Assembly: GCF_011745625.1 (NCBI RefSeq)
Contig: NW_027191506.1
Span: 58,021 to 78,020 of the forward strand
Length of the DNA: 20,000 bases
DNA from: Cladosporium halotolerans
Lineage: Eukaryota
Reading direction: 5' to 3'
Notes under the pieces: generated by a model
Database searches by the model: none
What the model saw: only the letters and a program-made list of their open reading frames with translations
What the model was told of the DNA's origin: nothing
Shown: in pieces, positions 1-20,000 of the stretch
Layout of the letters: each line of letters begins with the position of its first letter
How positions within the stretch are numbered: position 1 is the stretch's first letter
Position numbers and translations under genes: made by a program

Positions 1-1
1 A

Positions 2-115
2 AAGGCGCATTTGAGGCAAAGCCATAGCGCTTTCGCATTGAGCGTCAGGAGAGAAATCGAAGCATTCGTGAACACACTCACAGACGTTGCGCATCGACAC
101 GAAGAAGTCTACCCC
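2..115 (+). pseudogene. Fragment of a TLH/YR-helicase family member (copy A), N-terminal zinc-finger region; begins before the window and is truncated near 110-120
   Basis: Frame reads KAHLRQSHSAFALSVRREIEAFVNTLTDVAHRHEEVYP. It aligns with HLQTHHKRLSIEQRNDFVSRVEGCTELAKIHADVVYP (copy D) and HLREHHPQVGKEKRSRIAAIGVALEEVAHSKEEVVYP (copy E). Similarity stops after YP. Confidence 0.7.
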
Positions 116-651
116 CCACGGGTCCCCGGTGAGACCGGGCCCTCCCCTACTTATACCGGTCCTCGGATAACCCCGTCGATCCTTCGATTTTTACCTCGAC
201 GGCTATCGTAGCTACGGGGCTCTACCTATTTTTACTATATACCGGATTACTTAGACTATAAGGGAAAAATAAAGTCCCCCTTCTAGAGCGGATTATAGAG
301 GCTAGAAAAATAAATAGGTCGAGGGAGCTAAGTATCCCGAGGCTAGATATTCCTTATATCTTAGCCGTCTTAATTTTCTTAGGCTATTCCTATTTTTTTA
401 CGGTAGTATAGGGTATATACTACTTATACCCTAAATATCTAAGCCGGAGAAAATCTAATACCTTTTAGAAAATTAGCCGAAGGATACTTAGGAGGCCTAG
501 GGTTAAAGTACCTATAATTCCTTAAGTATATATATTTAGAGGGTAACTCTTAATATAATAAGCTTAGGGAGGTAAACTCTACCTAGTATATAAGTATAGG
601 TATCCTAAGTCTCTTACTTTTAGATATAGTAAGATTAGGGTTAGGGTATAT

Positions 652-1122
652 TTAGTATAATACTTAGCTAATTTTATCTCGAGCCCTCGATTTTTTTAGA
701 GCTTAATTCTATTTTTCCTATATAGTCGAATACTAAAAGAGTCTAATAAAAATAAAAGCTAAATAGGAAAAAATCGGAGAGGCGAGATAAATTTCCGGTA
801 AAATATCCCTTATAATTTAAGGGCGGATATTAAGGTTATAGCTTTATCTAGATCGATCTTAGAGATAGATATATCTCAGAAATATAAGCTTAGGGTAGCC
901 CCGGTCCCCCTAGGGTAGTTTATAGATTTAAATATAAGGATATAATAATTATCTCTATTATACTCCGGTTAGAGGTAGGGTTAGTAAAGTATTTAGCTAA
1001 TTTTAACTCGAGACCTAGATTTTTTAGGGCTTAGCCCTATATATCCTATATAGTCCTATACGGATAGAATTTAGGAAAAATAACGGTTAAGTAAATAAAA
1101 ATCGGAGAGACGAGATAAAATT
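652..1122 (+). repeat. Two diverged ~140-bp direct repeats (652-793 and 981-1122), each preceded by TTAGGG-like sequence
   Basis: Shared blocks TTAGCTAATTTTA.CTCGAG, CCTATATAGTC and AAAAATCGGAGAG.CGAGATAAA at an offset of ~329. TTAGGGTTAGGG at 635-646 and TAGGGTTAG at 976-984. Confidence 0.8.
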
Positions 1123-1234
1123 CGATAGAGTTTTCTACCTTTTTTTTAAAGAAAGTATTATCTAACTATTACCTATATTTAGAAGATATATCCCGCTAAG
1201 TATTAAGAGATCTATAGGAATTATCTACTTTTCT

Positions 1235-4200
1235 TTAACCTTTCTTAGGCCTTCCTCTCTTATTAGTCTTTATCCTTTTAGGTCTTCCTCTTCCCTTCTT
1301 ACTAGGTTCTCTCTTCGGAGTATTTTCTTTTATATTTAAATTAATATTAATCTTCTCTTCTTCTTCTCTTTCTTTTTCTCTTTCTTCCTCTTCCTCTTCT
1401 CCTTCTTCTTCTTCTAAAGATAGACTATCTCGATTAATATAAGATCTTTTAGAGTTAATATTAGATCTAGCTATACTAGAATCTCTCTCTTTACGAGAAT
1501 TAGATATAGATCTATTATCTAAAGAGCTATAAAAAGCTAAAGGCGGAGTAGCTAGTTCTAAATTATCTAAACTTAAATCTATAGGATTATTATAAGTAGG
1601 AGATTCTAAATTAGTAGTATTAATAAAATCCTCTATTTCCTTATTTTTAGGAGGCGATTTAATATTATCTAAAGCTTTTAGATTAGTAGAATCTAATTTA
1701 TTAGTATATTTATTAGTATCTAAAGAATTAGAGCTAGAATCTATGATAATTCGCTTATCTAAATTAGGTATATTCCTTTTAGAAGATAGGTTCTTATTTA
1801 ATATATTAGAAGAGCTACTAGACGAGCTACTAGAAGAGCTACTAGTCGAACTTCTCTCTAAAATATCCTTATCCTTTATAGTAGTAGGAGCTATAGAATT
1901 AGCGTTAATATCTAAAGATTTAAAGCTAGAGCTAGAGCTAGAGCTAGAACTAGAACTAGAACTAGAGCTAGAGCTAGAGCTAGAACTAACCCTAGAATTA
2001 GATTTTAGTAGATCCTTAGGATTAAAATCCTCTATTATAGTATCTATAGTAATATCTTTATCTAAATTAAAATAATTAAAGTAAATTTTAGAATATTCTA
2101 ACGATCTAATAGTTATATCTCTAGTTTTATTACTAAAATAGTTCTCTTCTCTAGCGTAGTTTAGATTAGACGTTAAGCTAGATCTATTAGCTAATATATC
2201 CTCTATTCTATTAGGTTCTTTTCTTTTATTATTATTATTTTTAGTAGGACTTAGTAGGTTAAGATTATTATTAAGAATCTTTTCTTTAATTATATAAGTA
2301 ATTAAATACCGATAAGGCTTTAGGGTTAGACCTTTACTAAAGTATAGTTTAGTCTCTCTAAAAAGTAAAATACTTAATCTAGTAGAACTTATTAAAGTCT
2401 TATTATTTTTTAAAAAAAGCTTAGTTTCGATAGTTTTATAGTTTAGGTAAGTAAAGTTAAGATAGTCGATAAACGGTCTAAGGATAGTAATATAATATAT
2501 AACGACTCTAGTAAGTCGAGGAGGTAGATATCTGATATTTTTATTATCTAACTTAGTAAAATCTCGACTTTTACTATAGCTAGTATTAATAGCTATTAAG
2601 TTAGACTCTCTATTAAAAAAGATATTTCTAAATTTACTAATATTACTATTTTTATAATTTAGAATAATAATTTCTTCTCCTCTTAGAGGACTACTAGTTA
2701 ATAGATAGATATTTAATACTAGTAATTCTAGAAATCGATCTAGCTTTTTAAGATATTCCTTTATATTACTTAGGAGGTTATCTCCTCTATTAAGGAAGTT
2801 ATTAATAAGGGTATTAGGATCGAGAAAGCGCTCGATAAGTATATCTCTAAACCTACTTAGATAAGTAGTAGTAGATAGGTTATAGTAAGGAGTTCTATTA
2901 TCTATATTATCGTCTATTCTCGAATAGTCTATATCGATAGTATTATTATAAAGGCTATCGTTTTTAAAGAGAAGTAACTCTCTAAAGAGTAAACTCTCTA
3001 TATTAGTTAAGATATTATTAAATAGATTTTTTAGTCTAGGTATATAAATATTAATATTATCGATAGCGATCGTATTATTATCGATCTCTCTAATCGGTTT
3101 ATAAGAGCTAACTATTTTATAATTATAATATTTCAATTTATTCCTAATATAATATAGTTCGCTAAAATAGTTATTAGAATTAATACTTAGAAGATTTTCT
3201 AGAGTACTTTTAAAGAATAGAGTAGGATCTTCGATATAATCCTCTTTACTATAAATCTTATAATTTAAATATCCGAGAGTATATAATCTACTATTATATA
3301 TAATAGCCGAAATAGCTTTTTCTAAAGTATCTTATCTTTTAAAACTATTAGAAGTCCTTTCTAAACTTCTTATAATATAGAAAGTTAAGGTAGGATTATT
3401 AAAGTCTCTATTAGATAGAAGGTCGACTTCTAACTCTATAGAGAGAAGTTTATTAAAAAGTTTAAGAATAAGTATCCTTATATTATATAATTCTTTAGGA
3501 TTTAAGGTATTATCTTTACTATTAGTTAGGATTTCTTTATAATATTTTAGGTCCTCTATAATATTTAATATATCTTCGTTAATAATAGGCGTATTATAAA
3601 TATCTTTAGATTTAGTACTAATATTATAGATATAGACTAGTAGTAAGCTAAATTCTCTAAAGTAGGATCTTTTCGTTTCTTTCTCTAAAGCTTTAAAAGG
3701 TCTAATCTCTCTATTAGTAGAATTAGAATTAGTATTATTAATAAGTATTCTAGTACTTAGAGATAATAAATCTATATCTAAGGATATTTCGTCTCCTAAA
3801 GTAATAGTAAGATTATAGAGTATATTTAAAAAGGTATCTTTAGCTTCTAAATCTTTATAGATAAAATCGTTAAGGATAGATAGATCTTTTCCTTCTAAGT
3901 ATTTATAAAAATTAGTAGTTCTATTAAGGAAAGATCCTTCTTTATTAATATTAGTAATAGTATCTTCCTTATATATAGTAGAATTAGCTATAGTATTATA
4001 CTCTATATTGAAGTTATTAATTAGATCCTTAGAAGAAGGATTATTTAAATTAGATCTAAGTCTTAAGTTAGAGCTCCGATTAGAGCTATTACTATTAGTT
4101 ATATTAGTATTAATATTAGGTAGCTTAGGTATAAAGGTTATAGTCCTATTATATTTAAAACCTTTAATAATAGTAAGAGGGATATCTTCTAATATATTAG

Positions 4201-4758
4201 GATTCTTAATATTACTAATACTCTTAAGCTTATATTTATCGATTAAATATATAGATACTACTTTATAATTAATATTAGTAAAAGAATCTACTTTAGATTT
4301 ATACCCTTCTAAAGTTAGAGGTAGGTCTTTATAATAATATTTATTAAATTCTAATTTTTCTAGATCCTCTAAGGAATAAAATCCTTTATTAGTTATAAAA
4401 GGCTCTATAGTATTAAGAATTAGATTAGTAGATTTTATATTAGTTTTATTATTAGAAAGATAATCTTTAAGGTGATTTTTCTACGAAAATATTAGTAAAA
4501 GGACTTTTTAATAAATTAAAGAATAGATAAACTTACTTTTAGGTGGTTTTTTATAGTATTATAAGTAGGATTTATATATATTTTACACTTTCGGCAAATT
4601 ATTATCTTTATATCTTCTAAATATAATATAGGAGTATTAGGTAGACCTATAGTAGAGCTAGGTTTAATTTTATTAAAACTATCCTTAGTATAAGGCTTTA
4701 GATCTTCGAGAAGATTATTAAAATCTACGTTAAAATAATTCTTAATAAGGTTCGACAT
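1235..4758 (-). CDS. Copy B: spliced C2H2 zinc finger + tyrosine-recombinase-like protein with Ser-rich/acidic tail and two AT-hooks, no helicase; ~1155 codons; exon1 4758-4537, intron 4536-4481, exon2 4480-1235; one internal TAA at 3332-3334
   Basis: Manual translation joins the 80-aa and 633-aa ORFs. The intron has a GTAAGT donor, CTAAT branch and TAG acceptor (56 nt, phase 0), and splicing rebuilds CRKC...NHLKKNH. The protein is colinear with the 15291 ORF (ILEDIPLTIIKGFKYNRTITFIPKLP vs VLENIPLQVLEGFPNNKKICFIPRLP; IYNSRL; SPLRGEE; KGLTLKPYR; ANRSSLTSNLNY). It ends in GRGRPK and KRGRPKK. Confidence 0.8.
1925..1988 (-). repeat. Hexamer microsatellite (AGAGCT/AGAACT)n encoding a poly-Ser tract in copy B
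   Basis: Direct reading of the tandem hexamers, matching the Ser run in the translation. Confidence 0.9.
4481..4536 (-). other. Spliceosomal intron (56 nt) splitting the C2H2 zinc finger of copy B
   Basis: Minus strand GTAAGT...TACTAATATTTTCGTAG; removal keeps the frame and restores the second His ligand. Confidence 0.85.
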
Positions 4759-4910
4759 TTTTTAAAAGTAATAGATCTTTTAAAAAGATTTTTAATTTAG
4801 TAAAATCCGAGGGATAGTCGATAAAGTAATCGATAAAGTAATAATCGATAGAAAAGAAGAGGAAAGGGTAGAGAAAGGAAAAGCGAAAAAGAAGTCCTTA
4901 GATCTTCCCT

Positions 4911-5017
4911 ATCTACCCCTCTCTACCCTTCTCTACCCTTCTCTACCCTTCTCTACCCTTCTCTACCCCTCTCTACCTCTTTCTACCCCTCTTTTCCCCT
5001 CTCTACCCCTCTTTTCC
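4911..5017. repeat. Tandem 10-mer minisatellite (CTCTACCCYT)n upstream of copy B
   Basis: About 10 units with some degenerate 9-mers; the purine-rich stretch AAAGGGTAGAGAAAGG at ~4863-4878 is its reverse complement. Confidence 0.9.
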
Positions 5018-5212
5018 CGGTAGATATATCGGTAATAAGCCCGGCTTTATTAATAAAAGAAAAGGGAGCGGACGGAAGCGGAGCCTTAACCCTAACCCTT
5101 AGATAAAGACGAATATAATAATATAAATAGTCCGGATTTTAATAGTAATATAGAAGGATTAAGTCTAAGGGAGCCTTAATTATTACCTACTAATATATTC
5201 TCTTATCTTTAG

Positions 5213-5398
5213 AGATAATAGTAAGTACTTTCTCCTTTATAAAAAATAATAAAAAGGCTAGTTAAGATTACTAACTAAAGTTATAGATTTAGTTATAAGC
5301 TTTCTAGGAAAAGACGTTTATACTCTCGACTTTATTAAAGAGACTAGAGAGATCTATATTTCGAGTTCTTTAAGCTCGGAAAAAATTATCGATCTCCT
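5213..5398 (+). pseudogene. Fragment of a spliced gene divergent from copy B, product unknown; intron 5221-5286
   Basis: GTAAGT at 5221, perfect TACTAAC at 5269-5275 and TAG at 5284-5286, followed by an open frame LVISFLGKDVYTLDFIKETREIYISSSLSSEKIIDL cut at 5399. Confidence 0.4.
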
Positions 5399-5633
5399 TG
5401 TTACAGTGAAGTGAAGTCAGGACTCAGGTCACATGACTTGGTCACGTGACTCGGGTCGGGTCACGTGACTCGCGAAGCCACGCCTGGAGGGCGCTTGGCA
5501 GCTGCGTACGGCTCACCTGCGGAGCGTAGGGGACTCGTCCGCAAAGTAGCGATTAGTCTTGTACTGGGAGCAGTGATTGCTCAGCAGTGTCCTATACGTT
5601 GCGAGATTTATCTTTTTAGATAATCCTTTATCA
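5399..5633. mobile_element. Possible solo LTR or LTR fragment (not RIP-saturated)
   Basis: Starts TGTTACA and ends ...TTATCA; three GTCAC[A/G]TGAC palindromes at 5428-5470; GC-rich island with CpA/TpG inside CpA/TpG-free DNA; no clean TSD. Confidence 0.45.
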
Positions 5634-5641
5634 GTCTCCCC

Positions 5642-6733
5642 GATACGACTCTATTAAATAAAGTAGGAGATAATCTAATAGACTTAGACTACTTTAAAGA
5701 TCTTAAGAAAGTCCCGTACTTTCTAGATAGAATAATTACGCCGGGAACTCCGTATAATACTAAACTACTTAAAGGACTAAAAGATAATAAACTAATCTTT
5801 AAATCTAATAAAATAGAGAAGTATAATAGGGATATTAATCGATTTCTAGAGTACCTTACTCTAGCTATCCTATTATTTAGCGGAGGTCCTTTAAGAGCTC
5901 CCGAGCTAACTACTATAATATATAAGAATATAGAGTCGAAGAATCGCTCGCTACTTTATAATAAAGATAATAACCTATTTACTATAACTACGGACTACTA
6001 TAAAAGTAAAAATATTACTAGAAAAGAAAACTTAAATATTAGATATATACCGCCTATACTTAGTAAGATATTACTCGTTTATATTATATATATTATTCCG
6101 TTTAAGGAAAATATACTAAAAGAATACTATAACCTAGAAGATTATAATACTCCGTACTTACTAGTAAAGGATAATAAGCTACTAACTAGCTATAATATAA
6201 CTACTATACTTAAAAAAGAATCTAGCCTCTATTTTAATAAAGGATTAACTCTCTATAGTTATAGAAAAATAATAAACTATATAATTAAAACTAAATTTAA
6301 TAATAAAGACTACTTTAGTAGTTCGGATACTAATATAAGCGATAATATAGAAGATCGGCAAGCTAATAGATCTACTAAAACTAGCTTTAACTATTACTTT
6401 AATACCGGATCCTATTTTAGTAATTTAAATAATATCTATAACCTAAATAAAATTAAGGAATTTAGTATTCTATACTTTAATTATTTTAATCTTTTAAAGT
6501 CCCGGGATATATCTAATAGTCGAGATATTAGTAAGGCTATAATAGATACTAGTATAGAAGATACTCCTAATTATAATAGTAGTAGTAATAATAACCTAGA
6601 ATTTACTATAAATACTAAGGATTTAGAGAGTAATATTAGGCTACTTTATAAGAATAATAAGCTAGGGTTTAAAAGTAAAGAGCAAAAAGACGGATTAATT
6701 AATATTACTAATAATATACCTATTATAACCTAC
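5642..6733 (+). pseudogene. Copy C: internal fragment (364 stop-free codons) of a YR-helicase gene, spanning the recombinase domain to just before helicase motif I; truncated at both ends
   Basis: Absent from the ORF track because it has no start codon. It translates DTTLLNKVG...FSGGPLRAPELTTIIYKN...TDYYKSKNITRKE...KGLTLYSYRKIINYIIKTK...EDRQANRSTKTSFNYYFN...FKSKEQK...PIITY, closely colinear with the 15291 ORF. Confidence 0.9.
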
Positions 6734-7177
6734 CATTAGAGGACGAAAAACTCGAGTCGAGTTGTTTGAATTCTCACGTAAATGAACCCTTAGGGTTGGA
6801 AGTAGGGAGTCGAGTTCTTTGCTTTATCTGAGACGTGTTTTTCGCTTTTACGATACTTAAAATGCCCAAATTTGCAGCTGGGCATTGCGATAAGAATCAG
6901 CTCACCGCACGCTCGATCGCAGCCGAATATTCGGAACGATGGTGCGGCAATGGTGTGCTGCCATCTATTGCAGATAGACGAGTTTGGGGTTCAGGTAGGG
7001 ATTCTTCCCCACAATACAGTGCCCTAGGCACTTACAGCCGACTCCTTCCACGCCACTTTAATGACAGACGCGAGACAATACTGCACATAGCTGCATTAGG
7101 AAGCGCCGATACCGATTATAACAAGAGCAGACTCTGTACCATATTGGAAGAATGCATATCTCATAGTTGGAGGAGTG

Positions 7178-10100
7178 ATGGACGATTTTCGACGTATCTT
7201 TGAAATTGACTCTCGCCACCGCATTTTGATCTGCCTACCTTGTCAATACGCTGTAATACCTTCACATACCAAGACGCATCTCCAGACCCACCACAAGCGC
7301 CTCAGTATTGAACAGCGAAACGATTTTGTCTCGAGAGTCGAAGGATGCACAGAGCTCGCCAAGATACATGCTGATGTTGTTTATCCATTGCCAACTGAGC
7401 CTCCGATTCCTAGCATCCCAGTGTATTTCGATGGCCTGAGATGCGACGGCACCGATATACAAGGCGACAGATGCCAATACATATGTCGTACTATATACAG
7501 AATGCAAGAGCACTGTAAGCGGGAACATCAATGGGTGAACCGACAAACACGCGGAGGTGACTCGCGAGCGAAACGAAGCCACACACAAAACAAGAGGTGG
7601 ACGGAACACCATGCATGCCAACGGCTATTCAAAGTTTCTACTTGGCAGAAATATTTCGAAGTCGCCCGTCAAAACATTGGGAGTGGCAGTCAGAGTCGAG
7701 CAGAAGTAAGGCACGACTTCTTCCGCACTCAGGAAAACGATGTGCGACAAGCAGAGCATGACGCCACCGAAGATGCTAATCGAGTCCACGGCTTCGACGA
7801 CCATGTCTCCGCCGTAGTCCCTTGGCTTAGAGAGACGGGCATCGCGGATCATATCAACCATCTCAAAAAAGACGAAATCCGAACAGCGATAACGGTTCCT
7901 CCGCCAGGGGGTGAGAGTGATCTCCGGGTAATAATCGACGCGATGGAGTCACTGCTACGAGATGCCCACAGGCTATGTTTCGACGGGCCGGACTGCATGC
8001 TGACTTATCAATGTCGAGTCGTCCTCAGCCGCTTCCAGCCGTCGCAAGTCGACCTGACAGGCAAGACCAGACCGTTCGATCCGTACAAAGGACCGAAGAG
8101 TCTTACGGCATACTTTGGAATAGCGCTTCGATTCGTGTCATATTTCGCTAGGGTTGTAGCTCCTGATGAGTACCACTTTAGTCCAGCAGCAAATACCGAC
8201 AATGATAGCGAAGGACAGAGGCCGGAGGATATTATCGGGGCAACAGATGAGCAGTTGGCGGCATGGCGAGACATCCACCAGATGACACAGCGGAGGCGCA
8301 CAGAACGGACCGAGGATGACAACAACGACAATAGCGACAACGATGAAGAGGACGCCGAAAGGGACAGTGAAATGAAGAAACGGCTTCTGGAGCTGTGGCT
8401 GCTTCTCATCTGCCACACCACCGGCGCTCGGCGATACCAGTCGCCTCTACTGAGCTTTTGTGCCATGCTCAGCATCAAGCCGTCGACGCGGAGTTGGATG
8501 GAGCCTGGCAACTTCAACAGCAGCCTCTCCGCCATGATATGGGTCGTACAATTGCTAGTGTTCTACGACAGCGCCGTAAAGGAACAGCAGGGATGTGGGG
8601 AGACGCTGAAACTGGTGAAAGCCTACTGCGACCAATATCTTCAACAGACCGTGGAGACACCTATGGGAGAGATACTCAGATGGCGCTTGTTATTATTCAA
8701 GGTGTCGGGCGCGACCGTTGGCACCCATGAAGCTTCTTGGGACGAAAGTGAAGAGGTACTCACATACGGGGACACCGAATTACGGATGGACCACATCCCG
8801 TCCCTGCTTGCGTCTGAGTACCGGGGGTGTTGCCAGCTCCTTTACGACGATCTGATGCTGGGTCTCACGAGTCTTCGCCGAATGAGTCCTCGGCTCCTCA
8901 AAGACGGTGTCAACGTCGATACCGTGAGTTGGAACTTCGTCCAACACAGAGACAACGCGACGATCCTCGATGGCACAGAACGAGCATTGATAAAAGCAAT
9001 GGAACGATCTGAGCAATTATGTCGAATCTTTCTTGTTGAGAATAGTCAGTCGCCCGGTGGATTGGCATGGAGGGAGAGCGCAATGGCCAGTTACGAAGCT
9101 ACCGTGCAGGAGTTTCTGAAACGGCTCAGCGTCCTCATACACATCAGTGGCGGGCAACCTGTACGGGAGAGCGAGTTCTTTTCGATGACATATCGCAACA
9201 CGCAGCGGCGACGGTCTATCATCATCCGCTTCGAGCGTGTGATGGTACACGTGCAGTACCACAAAGGCCAGCAGCAGACGGGAAGCTACAAAGAAAATGT
9301 CCGCTTCCTCGCCAACCCTATCGGAGAATTGCTGCTCGACTACATCACTTACGTCCTGCCGTTACGTGAGAGGTTTCTACGGCAGACCTCACCTGGATCG
9401 TTACTTTCCCCGTACCTTTGGGAGAAGGATGGAAAAGTGTGGCCGGAAGGCCATCTAAGTCGGTACTTGGAGGAAGCAAGTGTTCGGGCGTGCGTGCCGC
9501 GGCTTCACGTCGCCAACTGGAGGCAGATCACGGTGGCCATCGTAAAGACCAAGTTTGCTAGCCAGATCGAATGTTTCGATCCCGACGAAGGCGACGAAGA
9601 CGCAGAAGAGATCGATGCAACGATCAGGAGTATGACCGAACAGCGTAATCACAAAACACGGACAGTGAACCGGGCATACGCCAACCAGGCCGGGGCAGTT
9701 TTTGCCAATTTGTGGGATGGGAAAGTCCGGACGGGACTACAGGCTTCGACGCTGTGGCAGGATTTCTGGGGCGTAGGAATGATCCTCAAGCAAAAGAAAC
9801 GTGGGAAATTGGAGCAAGAATCTCGCTTGGCGAAACGGGTCGCTATGGGCATCTACCGTCCTCGGAAGCCTTGGTCGACCGAAGCTCTCCTTGGAGGGGT
9901 GAGGAAGCTGTATGGCAATAAAGAAGCAGGCTGGAAATCCGTCGAGCAGGAGCAAGCTCTCGCGACGATAATGTCGTGGACCGAGCAGGTAGTCGCCATC
10001 CTTCCCACGGGAGCTGGGAAGAGCTTGCTCTTTATGCTTCCATGCACTCTACCCGACGCCGGGGTAACAATACTCATCGTACCGCTCGTTGCACTTCACG

Positions 10101-11681: not shown

Positions 11682-11735
11682 GGATCCTAATTATGTTTTC
11701 GTACGTTGAGAAGTAGGAGACTAAACCCTAACCTC

Positions 11736-12776
11736 TTGGAAGTGAAATAGATAAAAAATGAAATTAAAGGTTAAATGAAAAATGAAATAGGAAGTAGGAG
11801 AAAGAATAGAATTAGATAAAGTAGATATTAGGTTTAGAATTAGGAAATATATATAAGATAAAATAGGAATAAAGTTTTTTTTTTTTTTGATTTAAGGAAA
11901 AGAAAAGAAGAGGGAAAAAGGGATAAAGGAGAATATTTTAAAGAAAAAAAAAAGTAAGAAAAATAGAAGGGAGTTAGGGTTAGAAGTAGAGTAGATTAGG
12001 AAGAGATTAAAAGGTTTATTATAGTAAAGAAATGATTAGAAGTTAAAGGGTAAATTAAAGAATAGTAGTAAATTAATGTTAGTAAGATTAAAAGTGTTAA
12101 ATAAAAATTAAAAAGATAAAGGAGAGAAAATTAATAAGAATAGAAAATTAGTAGGATTTAAAATAAATAAGAAGAAAATTAAGGAATAAAGATAGAAGAA
12201 TAAAAGATAAATTAAGAGGAGTATTATAAGTAAGATAATAATAAAAAAAGAGTAATAAAGAATAGAAGGATTTTAGAGTTTAGGGTTATAAAGAATTAGA
12301 AGTAAAGAGGTTTTTTTTTTTTTTTTTTTTTTGAAAAAAGAAAGAAGAAAAAGGGAAAAAAAAAAGAGAAAAGATTAAGAAGGTAAAAAAAAAAAAAAAG
12401 AGAAAAGATTAAAAAGGGAAAAAAAAAAAAAAAAAAAAAGAGAAAAGATTAAAAAGGGAAAAAAAAAAAAAAAAAAAGGAAAGTTAAGGATAAAGAGAGA
12501 GATAAGTAGAAAGAATAAGAAGAGAGAAAAGAGAGAAAGGTTAGGATAAGGAGAAAAGAAGAAAAGAAGAATAAAAGAGAAAGAAGGATGTTTAAGAGGA
12601 TTATAGAGGATAAGAATAAAGATAAGTAGTAGAAATAAGTGAAGGTAAAGGAGATAGAATATAGTATAGATATAAAATAGAAAGGATAGGAATAAATAGA
12701 TGATTATAGTATAAGATAGATAAAAGAAGAAGAAGAGAAGAGAAGGAGAGAAGGAGTAGGATTAGGATTAGGATGA
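11736..12776 (+). repeat. Cytosine-free A/G/T low-complexity tract with poly-T and poly-A runs, GAGAAAAGATTAA units and TTAGGG/TTAGGA motifs
   Basis: No C seen between the C at 11735 and the C at 12777. Confidence 0.9.
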
Positions 12777-12780
12777 CTCT

Positions 12781-14241
12781 CATTCTACGAAGAAATCACG
12801 GTGGTTTTTTTGAAACGTAGGCGAAATTTGAGGTGGGTCCGGCTTATCGAGACGGTGGTTTTTTTGAAACTTCGACGGTGGTTTCTTTGAGCATCTGATG
12901 TCGTAAAATCACGAGATAAAAGCAGAAGATACATTCTTGCATCGCAATACTAGAAATGTATTTAGATACGATAAACAGCGTTTTCTTAGTGTTGCATGTA
13001 TGAGGTCTTCTGAAGGGTTAGGGCATCGCGACGCGGGGCTGTGTAACAGAACACGCTGGCGTCGCAAATATAATGTCGGCGTTGACAGAAGAAGAAAGCA
13101 AGATTCTTTCTTGGGAGGGAAGGGCTAGGGAATAATTGCGATGCGGCGCGTAAATATATAGGCATCGCCCGTCGAGTTCAAGAAAGCGTTAGGGTTTACA
13201 CGAATTATTCTTTTCACAGCATCAGAAGTTGACACAAGAAATCTGGAGCAAAAATGGGTCGCGCTGGATGTGACTTTGACAGCATTCTTCAACACAGACA
13301 ACGATACAAGATCATCATATGCAAGCCGTGTGCTTTCGCTGTCGTACCGGAACAAATCGATCGTCACTTGCGTGAGCATCACCCGCAGGTCGGCAAGGAA
13401 AAGCGTAGCCGGATTGCGGCGATTGGGGTAGCGCTAGAGGAAGTAGCACACAGCAAAGAGGAGGTCGTATACCCGCAAGCGAACGAAGGACCGATTGAAG
13501 GGCTCGCGGTATACAAGGACGGGCTGCTGTGTATGGGACAGCGAGACGGAAAGGCTTGTGAATATGTCTGCCGAACGATTTCTGGAATGCAGAAACACTG
13601 CCGATCGGAACACGGCTGGGTGAACGAGAGAGGACGTGGAGGAAATGTGCGAAAGAAGGGGTTACAAGCGTTGAATCGAATGTGGGAAGACAAGCAGAGG
13701 TGTCAGCGATTTTTCGAGTACCGGCAGTGGCAACGATACTTTGCCGTATCACGAGAGGAATCGATCGGAGAAGACGGAGAGGGGGACGAAGCAAGGGAGG
13801 AAACGATCGATGGCGAGTCACAATTGCGAGAAGTGTTACGAGAGAGCCGAGCAAAGGTGTCTGACGCACGGCAGCGGCAGGCCGTCGACGGCAGCTTCAA
13901 ACGATACGTTGCAGACCCGTGGCTCGAATTCACAGGGTGGCACAGACACTTGCAAGGCTTTCAGTGGGACGATCTACTGCGGTTCGTCGAGCCGACGGCT
14001 AGAGAACAATTGCAGAAGCAGGGAAAGCGCGGGAAAAAGGCGGTCCGCATGCCGGAAGAGGATGAAGGAGAGGAAGAGCTAACGAGAGCTTGCAGAGGGA
14101 CGAGGAAGGTAGTACGAGAGGCATTCGAGGCGTGCAGACCGGGGACGACAGGCAGAGCGATATTAGAGTACGTCAACAGAAAGGAAGCGGCGGGGGATCA
14201 GCCGAGCATGAAGGCGTTCGATGGCAGCCGGAAGCCGAGAT
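12781..14241 (+). mobile_element. Copy E: 5' part of another family member (leader plus truncated gene)
   Basis: Sharp start after the C-free tract; three ACGGTGGTTTYTTTGA repeats; AGGGTTAGGG at 13014-13023; ORF homologous to the copy D N-terminus. Confidence 0.65.
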
Positions 14242-14288
14242 CTAACATTACCCCAGCTGGTGAAACCTGGTTACACCAGCAGTTTTGA
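13254..14288 (+). pseudogene. 3'-truncated TLH-like gene (DUF3505-like N-terminal ~330 aa); the last 14 residues are read-through into the copy F leader
   Basis: ICKPCAFAV...HLREHH, CEYVCRT...MQKHCRSEHGW, CQRFF...WQRYFAV and PWLEFTGW match copy D; ends NITPAGETWLHQQF, identical to the end of ORF 14463-15116. Confidence 0.85.
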
Positions 14289-14342
14289 ACCCGGTTACAC
14301 CAGCAAGGCTTTAGGGTTAGGGTTGTTGCTGGTGTAACCAGG
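14256..14342. promoter_or_regulatory. Four copies of GGTTACACCAGC (reverse, forward, forward, reverse) with TTAGGGTTAGGGTT between the last pair; putative recombinase or telomere-protein binding site (repeated at 15084-15170)
   Basis: Copies at 14256-14267 (reverse, 1 mismatch), 14269-14280, 14293-14304 and 14328-14339 (reverse); telomere repeat at 14311-14324. Confidence 0.6.
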
Positions 14343-14471
14343 ACAGCTACTGACAGGGGTAAGAAATTTCCATATTGTAAGCATTGTCCAACTTATGAAA
14401 AATTGTAGGTATTGCAGATTGAAATCCAATCGCAAAAACCTGTCGTTTAGGGTCGAAGCGAATTGGTAAGC

Positions 14472-15116
14472 ATGGAGTCGGACAACTTGGCTGCGACTTA
14501 CGCTTTCAACGATCTGCTGCGTTCCACTAGCAAGCTTTGCAGCCTGTCTTTCTACCAAAAACACATCCCATGCGCACCGGTGCAAGTAGTCAATGACTCC
14601 AGCATATGCTACAGTCAAGATCTCAAGCTCCTCTTGTGTACTACTTGCAGCAAAGTTCAGAGCCGAGATACGACGATCCGGCATCTAAAGCAGAGGCACC
14701 GCACCGAGTACAGCCGATTAAAGAAGGCCTTGAAATCGATTCAAGACGAAATCAGCCGTTTACCTATCAACGCTGCGGAAGCAATCAGCATCAGCCATAA
14801 TAAATATTACTTCTCTTGCTTGCCCATCACCTTCGACAACTTCAAGTGTAGAGAGTGTGCTTATGTCGACATCAATCGAAAGAACGTCCGAAACCACTTC
14901 CAGTCGCACCATTCTTGTCATATCAAGAGTACTAAGAGTACGAACCAGAGGGCAGACTACGTACTCGAAAACATTCCTCTTCAGGTCCTAGAAGGGTTCC
15001 CTAACAACAAGAAAATTTGCTTCATTCCCAGGCTACCAGTTCTCCAAACCGATACACCATCCACCCAGCCTAACATTACCCCAGCTGGTGAAACCTGGTT
15101 ACACCAGCAGTTTTGA
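14472..15116 (+). pseudogene. Truncated first copy of the copy F gene (two zinc fingers only)
   Basis: Identical to the first ~200 aa of the 15300 ORF, then reads into the second leader. Confidence 0.9.
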
Positions 15117-15299
15117 ACCCGGTTACACCAGCAAGGCTTTAGGGTTAGGGTTGTTGCTGGTGTAACCAGGACAGCTACTGACAGGGGTAAGAAATTTCCA
15201 TATTGTAAGCATTGTCCAACTTATGAAAAATTGTAGGTATTGCAGATTGAAATCCAATCGCAAAAACCTGTCGTTTAGGGTCGAAGCGAATTGGTAAGC

Positions 15300-18200
15300 A
15301 TGGAGTCGGACAACTTGGCTGCGACTTACGCTTTCAACGATCTGCTGCGTTCCACTAGCAAGCTTTGCAGCCTGTCTTTCTACCAAAAACACATCCCATG
15401 CGCACCGGTGCAAGTAGTCAATGACTCCAGCATATGCTACAGTCAAGATCTCAAGCTCCTCTTGTGTACTACTTGCAGCAAAGTTCAGAGCCGAGATACG
15501 ACGATCCGGCATCTAAAGCAGAGGCACCGCACCGAGTACAGCCGATTAAAGAAGGCCTTGAAATCGATTCAAGACGAAATCAGCCGTTTACCTATCAACG
15601 CTGCGGAAGCAATCAGCATCAGCCATAATAAATATTACTTCTCTTGCTTGCCCATCACCTTCGACAACTTCAAGTGTAGAGAGTGTGCTTATGTCGACAT
15701 CAATCGAAAGAACGTCCGAAACCACTTCCAGTCGCACCATTCTTGTCATATCAAGAGTACTAAGAGTACGAACCAGAGGGCAGACTACGTACTCGAAAAC
15801 ATTCCTCTTCAGGTCCTAGAAGGGTTCCCTAACAACAAGAAAATTTGCTTCATTCCCAGGCTACCAGTTCTCCAAACCGATACACCATCCACCCAGCCTG
15901 AAGTCGCAACACCCCAGCCTGGCAACAGTCGCCCACACTTCCTTGCCGAAGATGTTCGAACAGCGATCCTTAACGCACATGAAAAGAGCATCGAAGAGAG
16001 GGAGTGTGAACAGTCGTACAACGATGCAGCCTCTAACAACAAGAAATTACTCAATAGCTTCCTCACTAACTCCAACCTTCTCGACTTCCTCCAGGAGAAG
16101 GACAGAGACATCCTTGTCGATCTCATCAGCACACCCACTAGCACTAATCTCAAGCTCGAGAAAGATCTCGACCTCGAGCTGCTCGAGGCAAACATCCTTA
16201 GCTTCATGCTCGAGGCGCACAAGCACATCCCCCACCTCACGAGAAGATTGCGGCAGTTGCTGAGAACGGAAGACGTCTCGAAATCGTACAAGGAAATGAA
16301 AGACTTTATCCAGTTAACAAGGCCCGAACCGCACTTCAAGAAATACTGTCGACTGGCAACGTTCATAATCCGAGTCCATCTCATCCAGGAGAACTACAAG
16401 GAGGCGTCTTCTGATACGATCAAGAGTAAATACTTCGATGCCACCGAGCATATCCATCTCAGCGAGGAGACTAGAACGTTCATAAAGCGGCTCATGGACC
16501 TTGGAATCAAGCCGATCCAGGACGATACCGATCAGGAATATACCCCAGCTTTACGCAGCATCGTCGCTCGACTTTTCCACTCCCTGTTGAAGGATCAGAT
16601 CCACTTGAAGGTCAAAGAGAACAACACGTTCAGGAACTCGGTTGTCTTTTTTTACTTCTGTAACATCTTACACCCGCAGACAAAAGAGGTCCTCGACAGC
16701 CCCATGGTCAGCAAAATTGCCAGCATCTTCATCTACAACAGCCGGCTGATGTTCCTCGCCTACTACTACGCCGTTGAAGATAAACACGTGCTTAACGAAC
16801 ACGATATGAATCGAATGTACGAGAAAGAAGTTCGCAAATATCTCAGCAACGATTCGAAGAATTATTTCGAGGAACTCACGCAGATCCGGGCCTTCAGTTT
16901 GAAGCTCGCCAAACAGCACAAGTCGACGACTTATACCATCAAAGAGAGCCCGGCGGGCACAGTAGAGTTCAACGGCGTGCCATATCCTATCGAACACATC
17001 AAGAACTTCTTCATGCGGTTGGGCGTTCAATTGGAAGGGCAACTCAAGAGTAAGCTGCTGTTCGTCAATCACCTGGACACGCTCGGGATCGATTTCAGCC
17101 GGATCGAAGATACGCCGCTACTCAACAAGACTGGCCAGAGCATTGTCGATACCCCGCAACTCGAGCGATTCAAGTCATGGTTCCTCCAGGAGCTCGTCAA
17201 GGGGGACAGCGAGCACAATCGATTCTTCGTCAAAGACGTGCGGGGCGGTCGAATCCGATTTAAACAATCGAGCGTTCAGCGCTTCCTTGCGGATCTCAAC
17301 ACTTTCACGGAGCTCCTCGCCAATGCCATCAACCTGTACAGTGGTGGCCCTCTCCGAGGCACGGAGCTAAATCTGATCCTCTACAAGAACACTAGCATAA
17401 AGGATAGGAGCATGTTGTACAACAAGGATGCGGGGATGTTCTTTGTGAAGACCGATTACAACAAGACCAATAATATCACGCGCAAGGAAAGGGTCAGCTA
17501 CCGCTACCTCACACCGGTGCTCAGTAGGATCGTCATCATCTACGTGGCAGCCGTCTTGCCGCTAAGGGACTACATCTATCGCCAACACTATCGCGACGAG
17601 CAATACGACAATCCGTACCTGCTAGGCAGAAACCAAGGGGCCGTCAGCTCGTACTCGATCAGCATTCGCTTGCAGAAGGAGACGTCCACCTCTTTCCGCA
17701 AAGGACTGAGTCTACAGGCGTGGAGGAAGATAATCAACTTCATCATCAAGACCAAGATGCACGCATCCCCGCTCGATCCCGACGATAGTAGTGACAGCAG
17801 CGACGACGAAGACCTCGTGGAAGACAAGCAGGCCAACAGAACCACCCAAGTCAGCTTCAACCACTATTTCAACTCGGAATTCTTCGTGAACAGCACCGTC
17901 ACCCCAAAAGATCTAAGCGCACTTCGAGAGTTCAGCATCCGGTACTTCAATTACTTCAACCTGCTGGACGACTTGCAGCCCACGGATCAGAAGTACAGCC
18001 GTATCACCATGAGCACTGATCCAGGGCCGGTCGAGATGGTCACGCTCGATAACAGAGGCGTGCTGCAGCGCCTAAGGAGGCTGTACGGCGACCCGAACGC
18101 CAACTTCTTCAACAACGAACAGAGAAAGTGCGTTAGTCAAGTGCTCTCGGGTCGACCGTACATCACATACATCAACCGAACGGGCTCGGGCAAGTCGTTG

Positions 18201-19961
18201 GTGTACTTGCTGCCGGCGTTCATCAAGCGGAACCACCTGCACGTCATCATCACCCCCCGACTCGCCCTAAAGGACGATCTCTACGGAAAAGCATGTGAGC
18301 TCAAACTCCGTCCGAGTCGGTTCGAGGACGCGGTAACATACGACAGCAACCTGATTTTCTGCTCGGTGGAAGACCTCGACTCGCAAGGGCTGAAGCAAAT
18401 CATCGGCAGGCACAAGACGCTTGGAAGGGAGGTCACCATTATGCTCGACGAGGCGCACCTGTTCTTGATCGAGGCAACGTTCCGAGTCCAGCTTCGCAAC
18501 CTCATCACCATTCTGCAGTACAAAGCCGACGTGGTGTTCATCACCGCCACTCTCCCGCGGCCGCTCCTGCAGCTCCTCAACACGACGTTCGGCATCGCCA
18601 ACTTCAACAGCATCATCCGGGGTAGCAGCAACCGAAGCGACATCAGTTATCGAAGGGTGTACTACAGCGCCAAGGGAGACCGAGACGAGGTCGTTCGCGA
18701 GACGATCCGGGATATCGAGCGGGGAGACGACGACGTCCGAAACAAGGTCCTGATTTTCGTCACGAACAAGAAGCAGGGAGAGGATCTCGCGGAACTGTTG
18801 GGAACGGACACCGTCTACTCCGGCAAAAAAGACCTTCAACGGATCCTGCGCGAATTCCTCGAGAGCAAAACGCAAAGGTCACTGGTAACGACATCGGTCC
18901 TCGAGGTGGGGATCGATATCAAACAGATCAAGTACACGATCAGCGTCGAGCCGATCCATAGCTTGACTAGCGTCGTGCAATCCAGTGGACGGATCCGTCA
19001 GCGAGGGGTCAGCTACATCGTCTGCCAGCAGCCGAGCAAGAACAGTCGGAATCGGATCCAGCGGGATGCAAACGTGCGGCGAGAGGTTCGGGACATTGAC
19101 GATTTCAAGGAATTGGACCGGTCGTGGTACGGATTGCTGACTGTGGAAGAAGGCTGCCTCCGGACACCAATCAGCCAATTCTTAGACCACGTGCCGTATC
19201 GGTGTCAGGGCCATAGGGACGATCTCTGCTCGCTTTGCGTGGAGAACGAGCGGGTGAAGGAAGAGGGGCGGAAGAGGGAGGAAGGTGTAATGATGGAGAG
19301 ACGAAGCCGCTGGTTGGATCTGGAGGAGAAGCTGCTGCAGCTCAAGGAAATGTACTGCATGTACTGTGTGCTGGATCCGTACAACACCAGCAACAGCATC
19401 AACCACGCGGGGACAGAATGCCGAGCGATGCAGGGGGACAAGAAAATGAAGCTTGTACGTGGGCAGGTGGAAGGTGAGCTCCGACAGCAAAGGTTACCAC
19501 CGCACGAGTGCGGATGCATTCAGTGCCTGATACCGAAGAACATATGCTTGAAACAACAGGAGAACAACGGACTGGGGGAGGGAGAATGTTTGATGGGGCG
19601 ATTCCTGGTGGAAACGATGGCGGTGCTATTCCGTTTCCAAGAGCGGACGGAAGGGGCGATCGCCGGCCTACCAAAGCGGACGGAAGACTTGGGGGAGTTC
19701 GTGAAGAGGTTGATGGCGGCTCGGGGGTGGTTTACACTTAAAACAGTGCGATTAGTGGAGGTACTAGGAGGGTTGGATATAGTAGGGATGATAGAAGCGA
19801 TTGAAACCAAAGAAGAAGGGGAAGAAGGGGAGGAGGGACAGGTAGAGGAGAGGGCTTGGGTAGGACGGGGACGAAAGAGGCGGGCGAGCACGATGGGCAA
19901 GCCTAACCAAAAAGCAGCGGAGGGGAACACTTATCCCCAGCTAACCCCAAGTCGGCGCTAA
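15300..19961 (+). CDS. Copy F: uninterrupted ~1553-aa C2H2 + tyrosine-recombinase-like + RecQ-like helicase + Cys-rich protein (TLH-like)
   Basis: CTTC...HLKQRH, CREC...HFQSHH; SGGPLRGTEL, YNK, LQAWRK, QANRTTQVSFNHY; RTGSGKS, DEAH, TAT, TSVLEVGIDI, QSSGRIR; CLR...C...CSLC, CMYC, CIQC. First ATG at 15300. Confidence 0.92.
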   Translation: MESDNLAATYAFNDLLRSTSKLCSLSFYQKHIPCAPVQVVNDSSICYSQDLKLLLCTTCSKVQSRDTTIRHLKQRHRTEYSRLKKALKSIQDEISRLPINAAEAISISHNKYYFSCLPITFDNFKCRECAYVDINRKNVRNHFQSHHSCHIKSTKSTNQRADYVLENIPLQVLEGFPNNKKICFIPRLPVLQTDTPSTQPEVATPQPGNSRPHFLAEDVRTAILNAHEKSIEERECEQSYNDAASNNKKLLNSFLTNSNLLDFLQEKDRDILVDLISTPTSTNLKLEKDLDLELLEANILSFMLEAHKHIPHLTRRLRQLLRTEDVSKSYKEMKDFIQLTRPEPHFKKYCRLATFIIRVHLIQENYKEASSDTIKSKYFDATEHIHLSEETRTFIKRLMDLGIKPIQDDTDQEYTPALRSIVARLFHSLLKDQIHLKVKENNTFRNSVVFFYFCNILHPQTKEVLDSPMVSKIASIFIYNSRLMFLAYYYAVEDKHVLNEHDMNRMYEKEVRKYLSNDSKNYFEELTQIRAFSLKLAKQHKSTTYTIKESPAGTVEFNGVPYPIEHIKNFFMRLGVQLEGQLKSKLLFVNHLDTLGIDFSRIEDTPLLNKTGQSIVDTPQLERFKSWFLQELVKGDSEHNRFFVKDVRGGRIRFKQSSVQRFLADLNTFTELLANAINLYSGGPLRGTELNLILYKNTSIKDRSMLYNKDAGMFFVKTDYNKTNNITRKERVSYRYLTPVLSRIVIIYVAAVLPLRDYIYRQHYRDEQYDNPYLLGRNQGAVSSYSISIRLQKETSTSFRKGLSLQAWRKIINFIIKTKMHASPLDPDDSSDSSDDEDLVEDKQANRTTQVSFNHYFNSEFFVNSTVTPKDLSALREFSIRYFNYFNLLDDLQPTDQKYSRITMSTDPGPVEMVTLDNRGVLQRLRRLYGDPNANFFNNEQRKCVSQVLSGRPYITYINRTGSGKSLVYLLPAFIKRNHLHVIITPRLALKDDLYGKACELKLRPSRFEDAVTYDSNLIFCSVEDLDSQGLKQIIGRHKTLGREVTIMLDEAHLFLIEATFRVQLRNLITILQYKADVVFITATLPRPLLQLLNTTFGIANFNSIIRGSSNRSDISYRRVYYSAKGDRDEVVRETIRDIERGDDDVRNKVLIFVTNKKQGEDLAELLGTDTVYSGKKDLQRILREFLESKTQRSLVTTSVLEVGIDIKQIKYTISVEPIHSLTSVVQSSGRIRQRGVSYIVCQQPSKNSRNRIQRDANVRREVRDIDDFKELDRSWYGLLTVEEGCLRTPISQFLDHVPYRCQGHRDDLCSLCVENERVKEEGRKREEGVMMERRSRWLDLEEKLLQLKEMYCMYCVLDPYNTSNSINHAGTECRAMQGDKKMKLVRGQVEGELRQQRLPPHECGCIQCLIPKNICLKQQENNGLGEGECLMGRFLVETMAVLFRFQERTEGAIAGLPKRTEDLGEFVKRLMAARGWFTLKTVRLVEVLGGLDIVGMIEAIETKEEGEEGEEGQVEERAWVGRGRKRRASTMGKPNQKAAEGNTYPQLTPSRR

Positions 19962-20000
19962 CGGCAAGCGGCTACTGGATTTCCGTTTTGAGTAGCATTG

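Follow-up and report, generated by a model that had tools for sequence, protein, structure and literature searches.

Our favoured reading of a stretch of Cladosporium halotolerans DNA (contig NW_027191506.1 of assembly GCF_011745625.1, positions 58,021 to 78,020; these 20,000 nucleotides are called the window below) is that it represents a subtelomeric array of telomere-linked helicase (TLH) units, each about 5 kb long and apparently made up of a leader and one gene for a three-part protein. Judged by their sequence, the units belong to the TLH family, which is already known. As far as our literature search reaches, two things appear to be new: the TLH domain of these proteins is predicted to have the fold of a tyrosine recombinase, and in several diverged families the units seem to begin at an exact, site-flanked left end that stands beside arbitrary partners. 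We think it probable that the units are discrete, self-mobilising elements whose own protein acts at this left end, and we are evenly divided on whether such units are added at chromosome ends, with the array growing outward. The window holds at least seven pieces of this one protein family, which are named A, B, C, D, E, F' and F in their order along the window (Table 1).

The window genes were recognised as TLH genes from their Pfam domains, their RecQ profile and the names of their relatives. Pfam places OrsD (PF12013), an N-terminal C2H2-type zinc finger, in D (2e-22), E (6.8e-23), F' (4e-8) and F (2e-6), and finds DEAD and Helicase_C domains in both D (6e-13 and 1.8e-12, respectively) and F. 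When the family profile was compared with solved chains, it matched human RecQ5, BLM, RecQ1 and WRN as well as bacterial RecQ, with E-values of 2e-34 to 1e-22. Among named proteins, those nearest to D are annotated as hypothetical and come from Cladosporium, Hortaea, Friedmanniomyces and Recurvomyces, and more distant relatives are named tlh1 or telomere-associated recQ-like helicase. The TLH domain has been defined as a region of about 250 residues directly before the helicase (10.1101/2024.02.27.582403), and in D such a region is found at residues ~600-875, just before the helicase that starts at residue 924. Residues 560-910 of D were also searched against 1.84 billion cluster representatives, of which 1319 match at E<=1e-3 and 69 at E<=1e-30.

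The presence of TLH genes at the ends of fungal chromosomes was recognised in 1998, and the TLH domain was reportedly defined by Rehmeyer et al. in Current Genetics in 2009. The portion available of a study on Fusarium oxysporum (10.1101/2024.02.27.582403) describes TLH proteins with two C2H2 motifs, the TLH domain of ~250 residues before the helicase and RecQ motifs, and reports that most chromosome ends carry TLH regions, which are single or arrayed, whole or truncated, and flanked by telomere repeats. For Magnaporthe oryzae, the excerpts available of Rehmeyer et al. 2006 (PMC1635262) describe TLH ends with one discrete boundary in common on their upstream side, which falls at CCTAACC, on either the first or the second C of CCTAACCAGTAATA, and upstream repeats that include a 23-bp palindrome and TTAGGG motifs, and they state that terminal truncation is frequent. 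Both of these sources, in the same portions, term the function of TLH unknown (10.1101/2024.02.27.582403; PMC1635262). Similar points on TLH or subtelomeric RecQ genes are made in the parts available of a Botrytis preprint and a Zymoseptoria paper. Arrays, truncation, telomere motifs and a sharp upstream boundary are already in print for the TLH family.

That the TLH domain is a tyrosine-recombinase catalytic fold we regard as very likely, based on the predicted fold and on the order of the motifs. The AlphaFold model of the D domain, generated from an alignment of 41 sequences (A1), has a pLDDT of 81.7 and a pTM of 0.80. When it was compared by VIA-align with 48,161 chains, the best match was XerA with a Z of 10.4 (root mean square deviation 2.9 over 149 residues), followed by a second XerA (9.1), XerH (8.2), Cre (8.0) and XerD (8.0). 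Ranks 1 to 29 are all tyrosine recombinases, type IB topoisomerases or proteins of the same fold (Ndc10, QRICH1), and the first unrelated chain has a Z of 3.4. The domain of F, which is 22% identical to that of D, was modelled with a pLDDT of 74 and gives much the same picture: XerA comes first with a Z of 10.6 (root mean square deviation 3.4 over 152 residues), ranks 1 to 31 are recombinases, type IB topoisomerases or protelomerases, and unrelated chains appear from a Z of 3.5. The top rows of a Foldseek search with the D model are also mostly recombinases, among them XerA, Cre, Flp and the Tn1549 integrase.

The candidate active-site residues of D are R663, K696, R709, R782, H825 and Y834, and they lie in motifs that follow the canonical order, namely GGQPxRxxEL (R663), YHK...K...RFLP (K696 and R709), WRQI (R782) and QxxHxxRTxxxxY (H825 and Y834). 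In alignment A1, R782 and R709 are each kept in 40 of the 41 sequences, K696 in 38 of 40, H825 in 37 of 40 and Y834 in 37 of 39; in a second alignment of 27 sequences (A2), R663 is conserved at 90% or above and Y834 is invariant. Several results weigh against the assignment of the fold. The Foldseek search of the Protein Data Bank with the D model gave no match at E<=0.001, the best being XerA at 0.048, and Pfam finds no integrase on the domain at E<=10 and none among the 25 families listed at E<=1 for the 41 family members. A profile built from the domain only (A2) has as its best match among the solved chains an unrelated chain with an E-value of 2.1, and the whole-protein A1 profile is dominated by the helicase part. 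Additionally, the first histidine of HxxR is not kept in the family, and F has an arginine at the position of the conserved histidine H825.

The models support the view that the TLH protein is a fusion of a zinc finger, a tyrosine-recombinase-like domain and a RecQ helicase, and we infer that the recombinase-like domain may be catalytic. An earlier note on this DNA, made from the letters alone, had already proposed a fusion of recombinase and RecQ, and at the level of prediction the proposal is sustained by Pfam, by two predicted folds and by the near-invariant R, K, R, H and Y. Our searches turned up no paper in which TLH genes are brought together with tyrosine recombinases, integrases or Cryptons (most subscription journals were outside the search, so earlier notice is possible), but the family, its arrays and its boundary have been described before, as the portions of the literature cited above make clear.

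The other evidence that carries our reading comes from the ends of the units. Within the window, units start at 109, 6730, 14242 and 15070, and at each of these points the preceding copy is cut mid-gene. The start at 109 (CTACCCCCC) directly follows A, the start at 6730 (CTACCATTAG) cuts C, and the starts at 14242 and 15070 are the same (CTAACATTACC). The sequence 14242-15071 equals 15070-15899 with 0 mismatches; the repeat measures 830 nt and not 828 because F, where it runs on uninterrupted, reads CT at the position of the F' cut. E can be aligned to D as far as the serine codon at 14241-14243, which places the E/F' junction no more than 2 nt from where the F'/F repeat begins on the left. 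One element base, that of CTAACATTACC, is joined to two partners, near residue 330 in E and near residue 200 in F'. In the leader of F, TTAGGGTTAGGG is surrounded by three copies of a 15-mer, two of them direct and one inverted. When up to one mismatch is allowed, TTAGGGTTAGGG is found 5 times in the window, where 0.14 occurrences would be expected. The hairpin in this leader, as measured on the identical copy in F', has a DNA folding z of -3.77, and 0 of 200 shuffles are as stable. The leader of D has a short palindrome and TTAGGGTT near 6790, and its fold is not significant (z -0.43).

Much of this had been claimed in the earlier note, which described at least seven highly diverged copies, joined at sharp junctions that cut the previous copy mid-gene and starting in a structured leader. 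The copies are confirmed by tblastn and blastx, and their protein identity of 20-45% (F' and F excepted, as F' equals F) agrees with the divergence that was claimed. The junctions are also real and have been refined to the positions given above, the start of D having moved from 6733 to 6730. The structured leader holds for F and not for D.

Relatives were collected by scanning metagenome contigs with the D protein, which gave 48 loci (numbered with the prefix L) that were mapped by tblastn and whose leaders were compared pairwise. L007, L008 and L019 have sequence in common from exactly -472/-473 relative to the start codon, and their three flanks upstream of this point are unrelated to one another; the identity of L007 to L008 is 100% over 773 nt, and further upstream the two show no relationship. 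The same pattern is seen in L006, L015 and L029, where the sequence in common begins at -494. The left end starts with CT(A/G)(A/C/T)C-NN-TAG(A/T)A, which fits CTACC-NN-TAG, and behind it come, in turn, a palindrome, some 20 nt, a telomere-like motif (which is TTAGGGTTAGGG or, in certain families, the complement) and two further direct copies of the half-site of the palindrome. The sequence of the half-site varies by family and the layout is constant, as in putative binding-site-like repeats. A search for CT[AG][ACT]C-N2-3-TAG in the 750 nt upstream of the start codon found this start motif in 19 of 33 upstream regions, given a background of 0.14-0.19 per kb. Thirteen of the hits are at -441 to -494, four at -182 to -194 and one at -616; the nineteenth, at -32 in the leader of F, is not the mapped end of F (-230), whose CTAACATTACC start is outside the pattern. 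Several of the 14 misses are contigs that begin inside the leader or slight variants of the motif.

The flanks upstream of these left ends are of several kinds. In L015 (8044-9500) the flank is an open reading frame (ORF) for a class I aminoacyl-tRNA synthetase (E 5e-74) that is broken at profile position 214 of 414, exactly at the left end of the TLH unit, and either a duplicated piece of the gene was captured at a chromosome end or the unit was inserted into the gene. L008 is flanked by a long interspersed nuclear element (LINE) with endonuclease and reverse transcriptase, L029 by an ORF for an alpha/beta hydrolase and L007 by sequence that lies 940 nt from a forkhead gene. In L042 and L043 one unit end is joined to different points of a related upstream copy, and L011 and L012 are identical from TACC on, with the preceding C in L011 only. 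At the other side, homology among D-like copies stops about 600 nt past residue 1305, just after the stop codon. A right-end motif, TAACCTCT or TAA(C/T)AACCTTCT, follows the stop codon at a distance of 25-190 nt, both in the window, where it ends near 11740, and in L001, L002, L003, L005 and L013. Retroposition via RNA was ruled out as no poly(A) was found at the right ends that were inspected.

The link to chromosome ends is visible both in the window and in the relatives. Of the 1020 nt at 11741-12760 not one is a C (A 573, G 230, T 218). TTARRR occurs 26 times in this tract, and 500 shuffles give 12.8 on average and 23 at most. It is probably an old telomere tract that has decayed by G-to-A changes, in which case D was once terminal and a former chromosome end separates it from E, F' and F. 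Similar C-free tracts of 188-1723 nt follow the units in eight loci (L001, L003, L004, L011, L012, L018, L035 and L045), always on the strand of the ORF (8/8), and one locus has a G-free tract at its start. In L045 a full copy is followed by a 1.7-kb cytosine-free tract rich in TTAGGG-like hexamers and then by perfect repeats at the contig end, and L035 is similar. In L009 a copy cut at residue 620 is capped by (TTAGGG)11 at the contig end. These three loci all end in TTAGGG and their units are oriented toward the telomere. In both contigs that show where the repeat starts, a GAGT/GTGA run stands directly before the first TTAGGG (L009 2270-2301, L045 5985-6033), and this run may be a mark of the seeding of new telomeres in these fungi.

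The composition of the window separates its copies by age. GC content is 19-37% in the blocks ~120-6729 and 11741-12775, and the index (CpA+TpG)/(ApC+GpT) is 0.0-0.1 across 501-6500, 0.2 at 12001-12500 and 0.9-1.4 in D, E and F. The blocks with a low index are the result of repeat-induced point mutation (RIP). A mitochondrial origin of the AT-rich block was ruled out because CpA and TpG, whose loss is the mark of RIP, are almost absent; B has 1 CpA and 4 TpG in 3246 nt. By the same index A is not RIP-mutated. Given that RIP has acted on the older copies, the steps in composition are the borders between older, mutated and younger, unmutated material, and the duplication of F' and F, a perfect 828-nt tandem repeat that is yet unmutated, is younger than the last round of RIP.

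B and C are open despite RIP. B has 2 stops in 1081 codons (1235-4480, minus strand) and no Q, W, M or C, and C has 0 stops in ~375 codons (5610-6737), where a simulated complete mutation of CpA and TpG gives 76 stops in F and 87 in D. The tryptophan of the WR motif reads tyrosine in C. It is possible that the two copies come from a lineage that has long been shaped by RIP under selection for an open frame, and an open, subtelomeric RecQ ORF of low GC (34.7%) is mentioned for Zymoseptoria in the part available of that source. When B was tested as the RIP product of an F-like gene, the residues aligned to the glutamines of F showed no pattern.

The pieces of the array were mapped with a six-frame ORF listing, followed by tblastn of four long ORF products against the window. 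D and F have ~23% protein identity, B and C ~37%, and E is 31-35% identical to D. A blastn comparison of the window with itself finds only the F'/F repeat, a 158-nt repeat near 640/970 and low-complexity matches. The copies are related only at the protein level. A (2-118, frame +2) matches the zinc-finger region of relatives at residues ~31-81 in blastx, with a best E-value of 1e-4. The 158-nt direct repeat, at 639-795 and 967-1123, lies within the leader-like pieces that follow A. C is matched by tblastn at 5627-6697 with 42% identity to residues 599-889 of F. The ORF of E extends to 14288, of which 13254-14241 codes for its first ~330 residues, with the zinc-finger domain, before E is cut by F'. 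The leader of E has three copies of a half-site of ~19 nt at 12800-12890.

B is spanned by tblastn matches from ~4354 down to 1235 on the minus strand, with 30% identity to F, and by translation and tblastn it consists of zinc-finger remains and the recombinase-like domain, without a helicase. Helicase-less relatives may therefore exist. The tail of B (1235-2000, minus strand) has runs of serine and glutamate followed by GRGRPKR...KRGRPKKG, which is AT-hook-like. A telomere-like motif is found in B at 5084-5101, and its leader has a 10-nt tandem repeat of 13 units at 4897-5026. At 5400-5600 is a GC-rich unmutated island with three copies of a repeat centred on CACGTG. Both of these repeats recall the helicase-associated repeats of M. 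oryzae. Public sequencing runs that hold any of 13200-16400 number 20, from 15 studies, with at least half of the sampled words in 17. Many of the runs are metagenomes of air, dust, urban surroundings or plastic, and the host is probably a common airborne mould.

Table 1. Position, strand and basis of the features of the window.
Feature	Positions	Strand	Remarks
A, N-terminal zinc-finger fragment	1..108	+	Ends at the window edge (left) and the next unit (right)
RIP-mutated leader-like pieces	109..1234	+	Start CTACCCCCC; TTAGGGTTAGGG at 635-646; division into units approximate
B, inverted, heavily RIP-mutated	1235..5165	-	Left end near 5165, approximate
C, RIP-mutated fragment with recombinase-like domain	5610..6729	+	Corresponds to F residues 599-928; 3' side cut by D
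Unit D, ~5.0 kb, not RIP-mutated	6730..11740	+	Leader 6730-7177; ORF 7178-11140 (1320 residues)
Predicted tyrosine-recombinase-like catalytic domain of D	9092..9787	+	Residues ~639-870; AlphaFold model
RecQ-type helicase core of D	9947..10852	+	Pfam; starts at residue 924
Right-end motif of D, CCCTAACCTCT	ends near 11740	+	Sequence
C-free tract	11741..12760	+	Composition
Unit E	12700..14241	+	Leader, then ORF from 13254; left end near 12700 approximate as RIP-mutated
F'	14242..15069	+	First 828 nt of the F unit (leader and ~200 codons); cut by the left end of F
Unit F	15070..20000	+	Leader 15070-15299; intact ORF 15300-19961 (1553 residues); right end past the window
Predicted tyrosine-recombinase-like domain of F	17265..17963	+	Residues ~656-888; predicted model

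Under the reading that we favour, each new unit would be attached to the chromosome at its distal end, always through one and the same exact left end. One join would have been made onto a telomere tract (D, tract, E) and the others onto ends that were eroded or broken inside the last unit, as between A and the next unit, C and D, E and F', and F' and F. The joining enzyme would likely be the recombinase-like domain, with the repeated sites that adjoin the left end as its place of action, and the older copies would have been RIP-mutated later. A chemically coherent route would begin with a cut at the left end that leaves the 3' phosphate of the bottom strand attached to the enzyme, and the bottom strand thus held would be ligated to the 5'-OH of the recessed strand of the chromosome. 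Type IB topoisomerases can join a covalently held strand to another 5'-OH end. We infer that units were added at the end rather than inserted.

Some of our own observations count against units of this kind. D is disabled by a frameshift near its 3' end (11067-11180): when compared with an allele in the protein database that is 99.6% identical and 1444 residues long, it has a 17-nt tandem duplication and a 1-nt indel near 11067-11100, and its cysteine-rich C-terminal coding part at 11172-11681 is out of frame. The right end is less sharply defined than the left, and the microhomology at the junctions is only 0-2 nt, which also fits host end joining. The window has no true terminal telomere, B is inverted, and some relatives have ordinary genes downstream, namely BTB (L018), HhH-GPD (L017) and zf-MYND (L020). 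The inverted B and these downstream genes mean that not every copy is terminal.

The published view offers an alternative in which TLH genes are host genes for telomere repair and the arrays follow from passive subtelomere dynamics, that is from truncation, telomerase healing, break-induced replication and ectopic recombination, with the recombinase-like domain having another role at the junctions or none. Truncation and healing can be seen directly in L009, the low microhomology suits end joining, and the telomere-derived tract between D and E is what telomerase healing and recombination would leave between complete units. However, healing and recombination should leave TTAGGG at the joins, and no telomere repeat is found at the four window joins, at the six left ends of L006, L007, L008, L015, L019 and L029, or in L042 and L043. 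The telomere-like motif is instead 54-69 nt inside the unit in L007, L008, L019, D and F, and the leader of L042/L043 has none. Random breaks would not reuse one element base beside many partners, and so random end joining does not account for one exact base on many unrelated flanks; nor do telomerase healing and telomere-repeat recombination account for the reuse of this base together with the loss of the upstream 3' part and the lack of telomere repeats. The near-invariant catalytic-type residues, moreover, point to selection on an enzymatic activity. We consider passive dynamics rather unlikely, and it is because these routes leave the joins unexplained that self-mobilising units are favoured. 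An assembly artefact, in which the junctions and above all that of F' and F are chimeras of collapsed repeats, is highly improbable. The 0 mismatches over 830 nt are what a collapsed repeat might give, but the left edge of the duplication matches the independently defined E/F' junction within 2 nt and like junctions recur in contigs that were assembled separately; the 17 runs with at least half of the sampled words of 13200-16400 speak for the stretch and say nothing of the junctions themselves.

Transposition in the manner of Cryptons would use the same recombinase fold and the same exact left end in a different way, with a circle being excised and integrated by the recombinase into internal targets, often relatives, so that nested copies arise with their 3' halves downstream. 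The CT that the uninterrupted F has at the F' cut, at the end of the 830-nt repeat, is in keeping with this, as are the inverted B and the relatives that adjoin ordinary genes. A left-end-like motif, TAACCTCT plus AGGAC or AGAG, 60-190 nt past the stop in the window, L001, L003 and L013, would fit a core common to both ends. The earlier note had suggested looking downstream for the missing 3' halves, but tblastn in the window does not find them: the helicase half of C is not resumed after the right end of D, where the C-free tract follows instead, and at 4 of the 4 plus-strand junctions the upstream partner loses its 3' part with no remainder within the 20 kb. The units of L009, L045 and L035 point to telomeres, and no empty site, circle junction or target restored on both sides was seen among the 48 loci. 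We judge Crypton-like transposition to be quite improbable. Two relatives (L014 84-4079, L028 1048-3508) have a diverged copy cut at about residue 875-896 and then a D-like copy from about residue 500-509, with no leader. This type of junction fits neither of the simple models, addition or insertion, and it keeps insertion and passive models alive, as do the inverted B and the relatives that have ordinary genes downstream.

Seen against these alternatives, the earlier picture of autonomous elements in nested or head-to-tail arrays is retained in part. Shared termini, which it proposed should be sought among the copies, were found in the relatives as an exact conserved left end beside unrelated flanks, whereas nested self-insertion is not supported. 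Likewise, the window is an array of one family with exact left ends, but that family is the already known TLH family and its mobility is unproven. The reading of the units as mobile elements is credible but unproven.

If the TLH protein cuts and joins at the left end, subtelomere growth in many fungi would be driven by elements and not be merely a by-product of repair, and a new kind of recombinase-helicase element would stand beside Cryptons, DIRS elements and Starships. A bolder version, which we hold to be doubtful, is that TLH units are a large unrecognised group of tyrosine-recombinase DNA elements specialised in chromosome ends, in which the left end is cut and ligated to the free 5'-OH of a broken or shortened end with RecQ assisting, and each addition heals and lengthens that end. 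Were this true, the telomeric retrotransposons of Drosophila would have a DNA-based counterpart in these units, and the location of TLH genes at telomeres across fungi and in a choanoflagellate would be explained. Should there be no cut-and-join activity, a structural annotation would still be gained for a domain in at least 1319 protein clusters. The predicted recombinase fold, the conserved residues and the exact site-flanked end together make cutting and joining a testable question.

Several known systems can be compared to the units of the window. Helitrons differ in that Pfam finds no Rep domain in D or F, whose helicase is RecQ-type. The Starships, with their Captain (DUF3435), are fungal DNA elements moved by a tyrosine recombinase, as is proposed for the window units, but the latter are ~5 kb long with one gene and no cargo, and at the thresholds applied neither D nor F nor any of the 41 family members matches DUF3435. 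The Y' elements of Saccharomyces cerevisiae are, in the portions of the sources available, subtelomeric helicase units in head-to-tail arrays with telomere repeats between them, amplified on telomere failure. We know of no recombinase domain in Y' elements. They spread by homologous recombination, whereas the window junctions are without homology. Type IB topoisomerases and hairpin telomere resolvases (vaccinia topoisomerase, ResT, TelK and TelA) would have the same catalytic fold and are among the matches of the models. These enzymes cut at a defined site; unlike the window units they are not fused to a helicase and are not mobile units.

Cryptons are eukaryotic DNA transposons that encode a tyrosine recombinase. 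Like the window units, where the recombinase is predicted, they have a single ORF that carries it, lack both terminal inverted repeats and long terminal repeats, and show very short identity at their ends, and the Crypton-derived host protein QRICH1 and Ndc10 are among the fold matches of the TLH domain. They differ in that the window units are fused to a RecQ helicase and an OrsD zinc finger and are tied to telomeres. The closest comparison is with the published TLH regions, which, as far as the available portions of those sources go, have the same protein layout and are multi-copy, subtelomeric, whole or truncated, and arrayed with interstitial telomere repeats. There the TLH domain is given no known function and the regions are viewed as subtelomeric host sequence, whereas here the domain is assigned a predicted recombinase fold, and where the portion available on M. 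oryzae describes one boundary, we see an exact boundary beside gene, LINE and TLH flanks in several diverged families.

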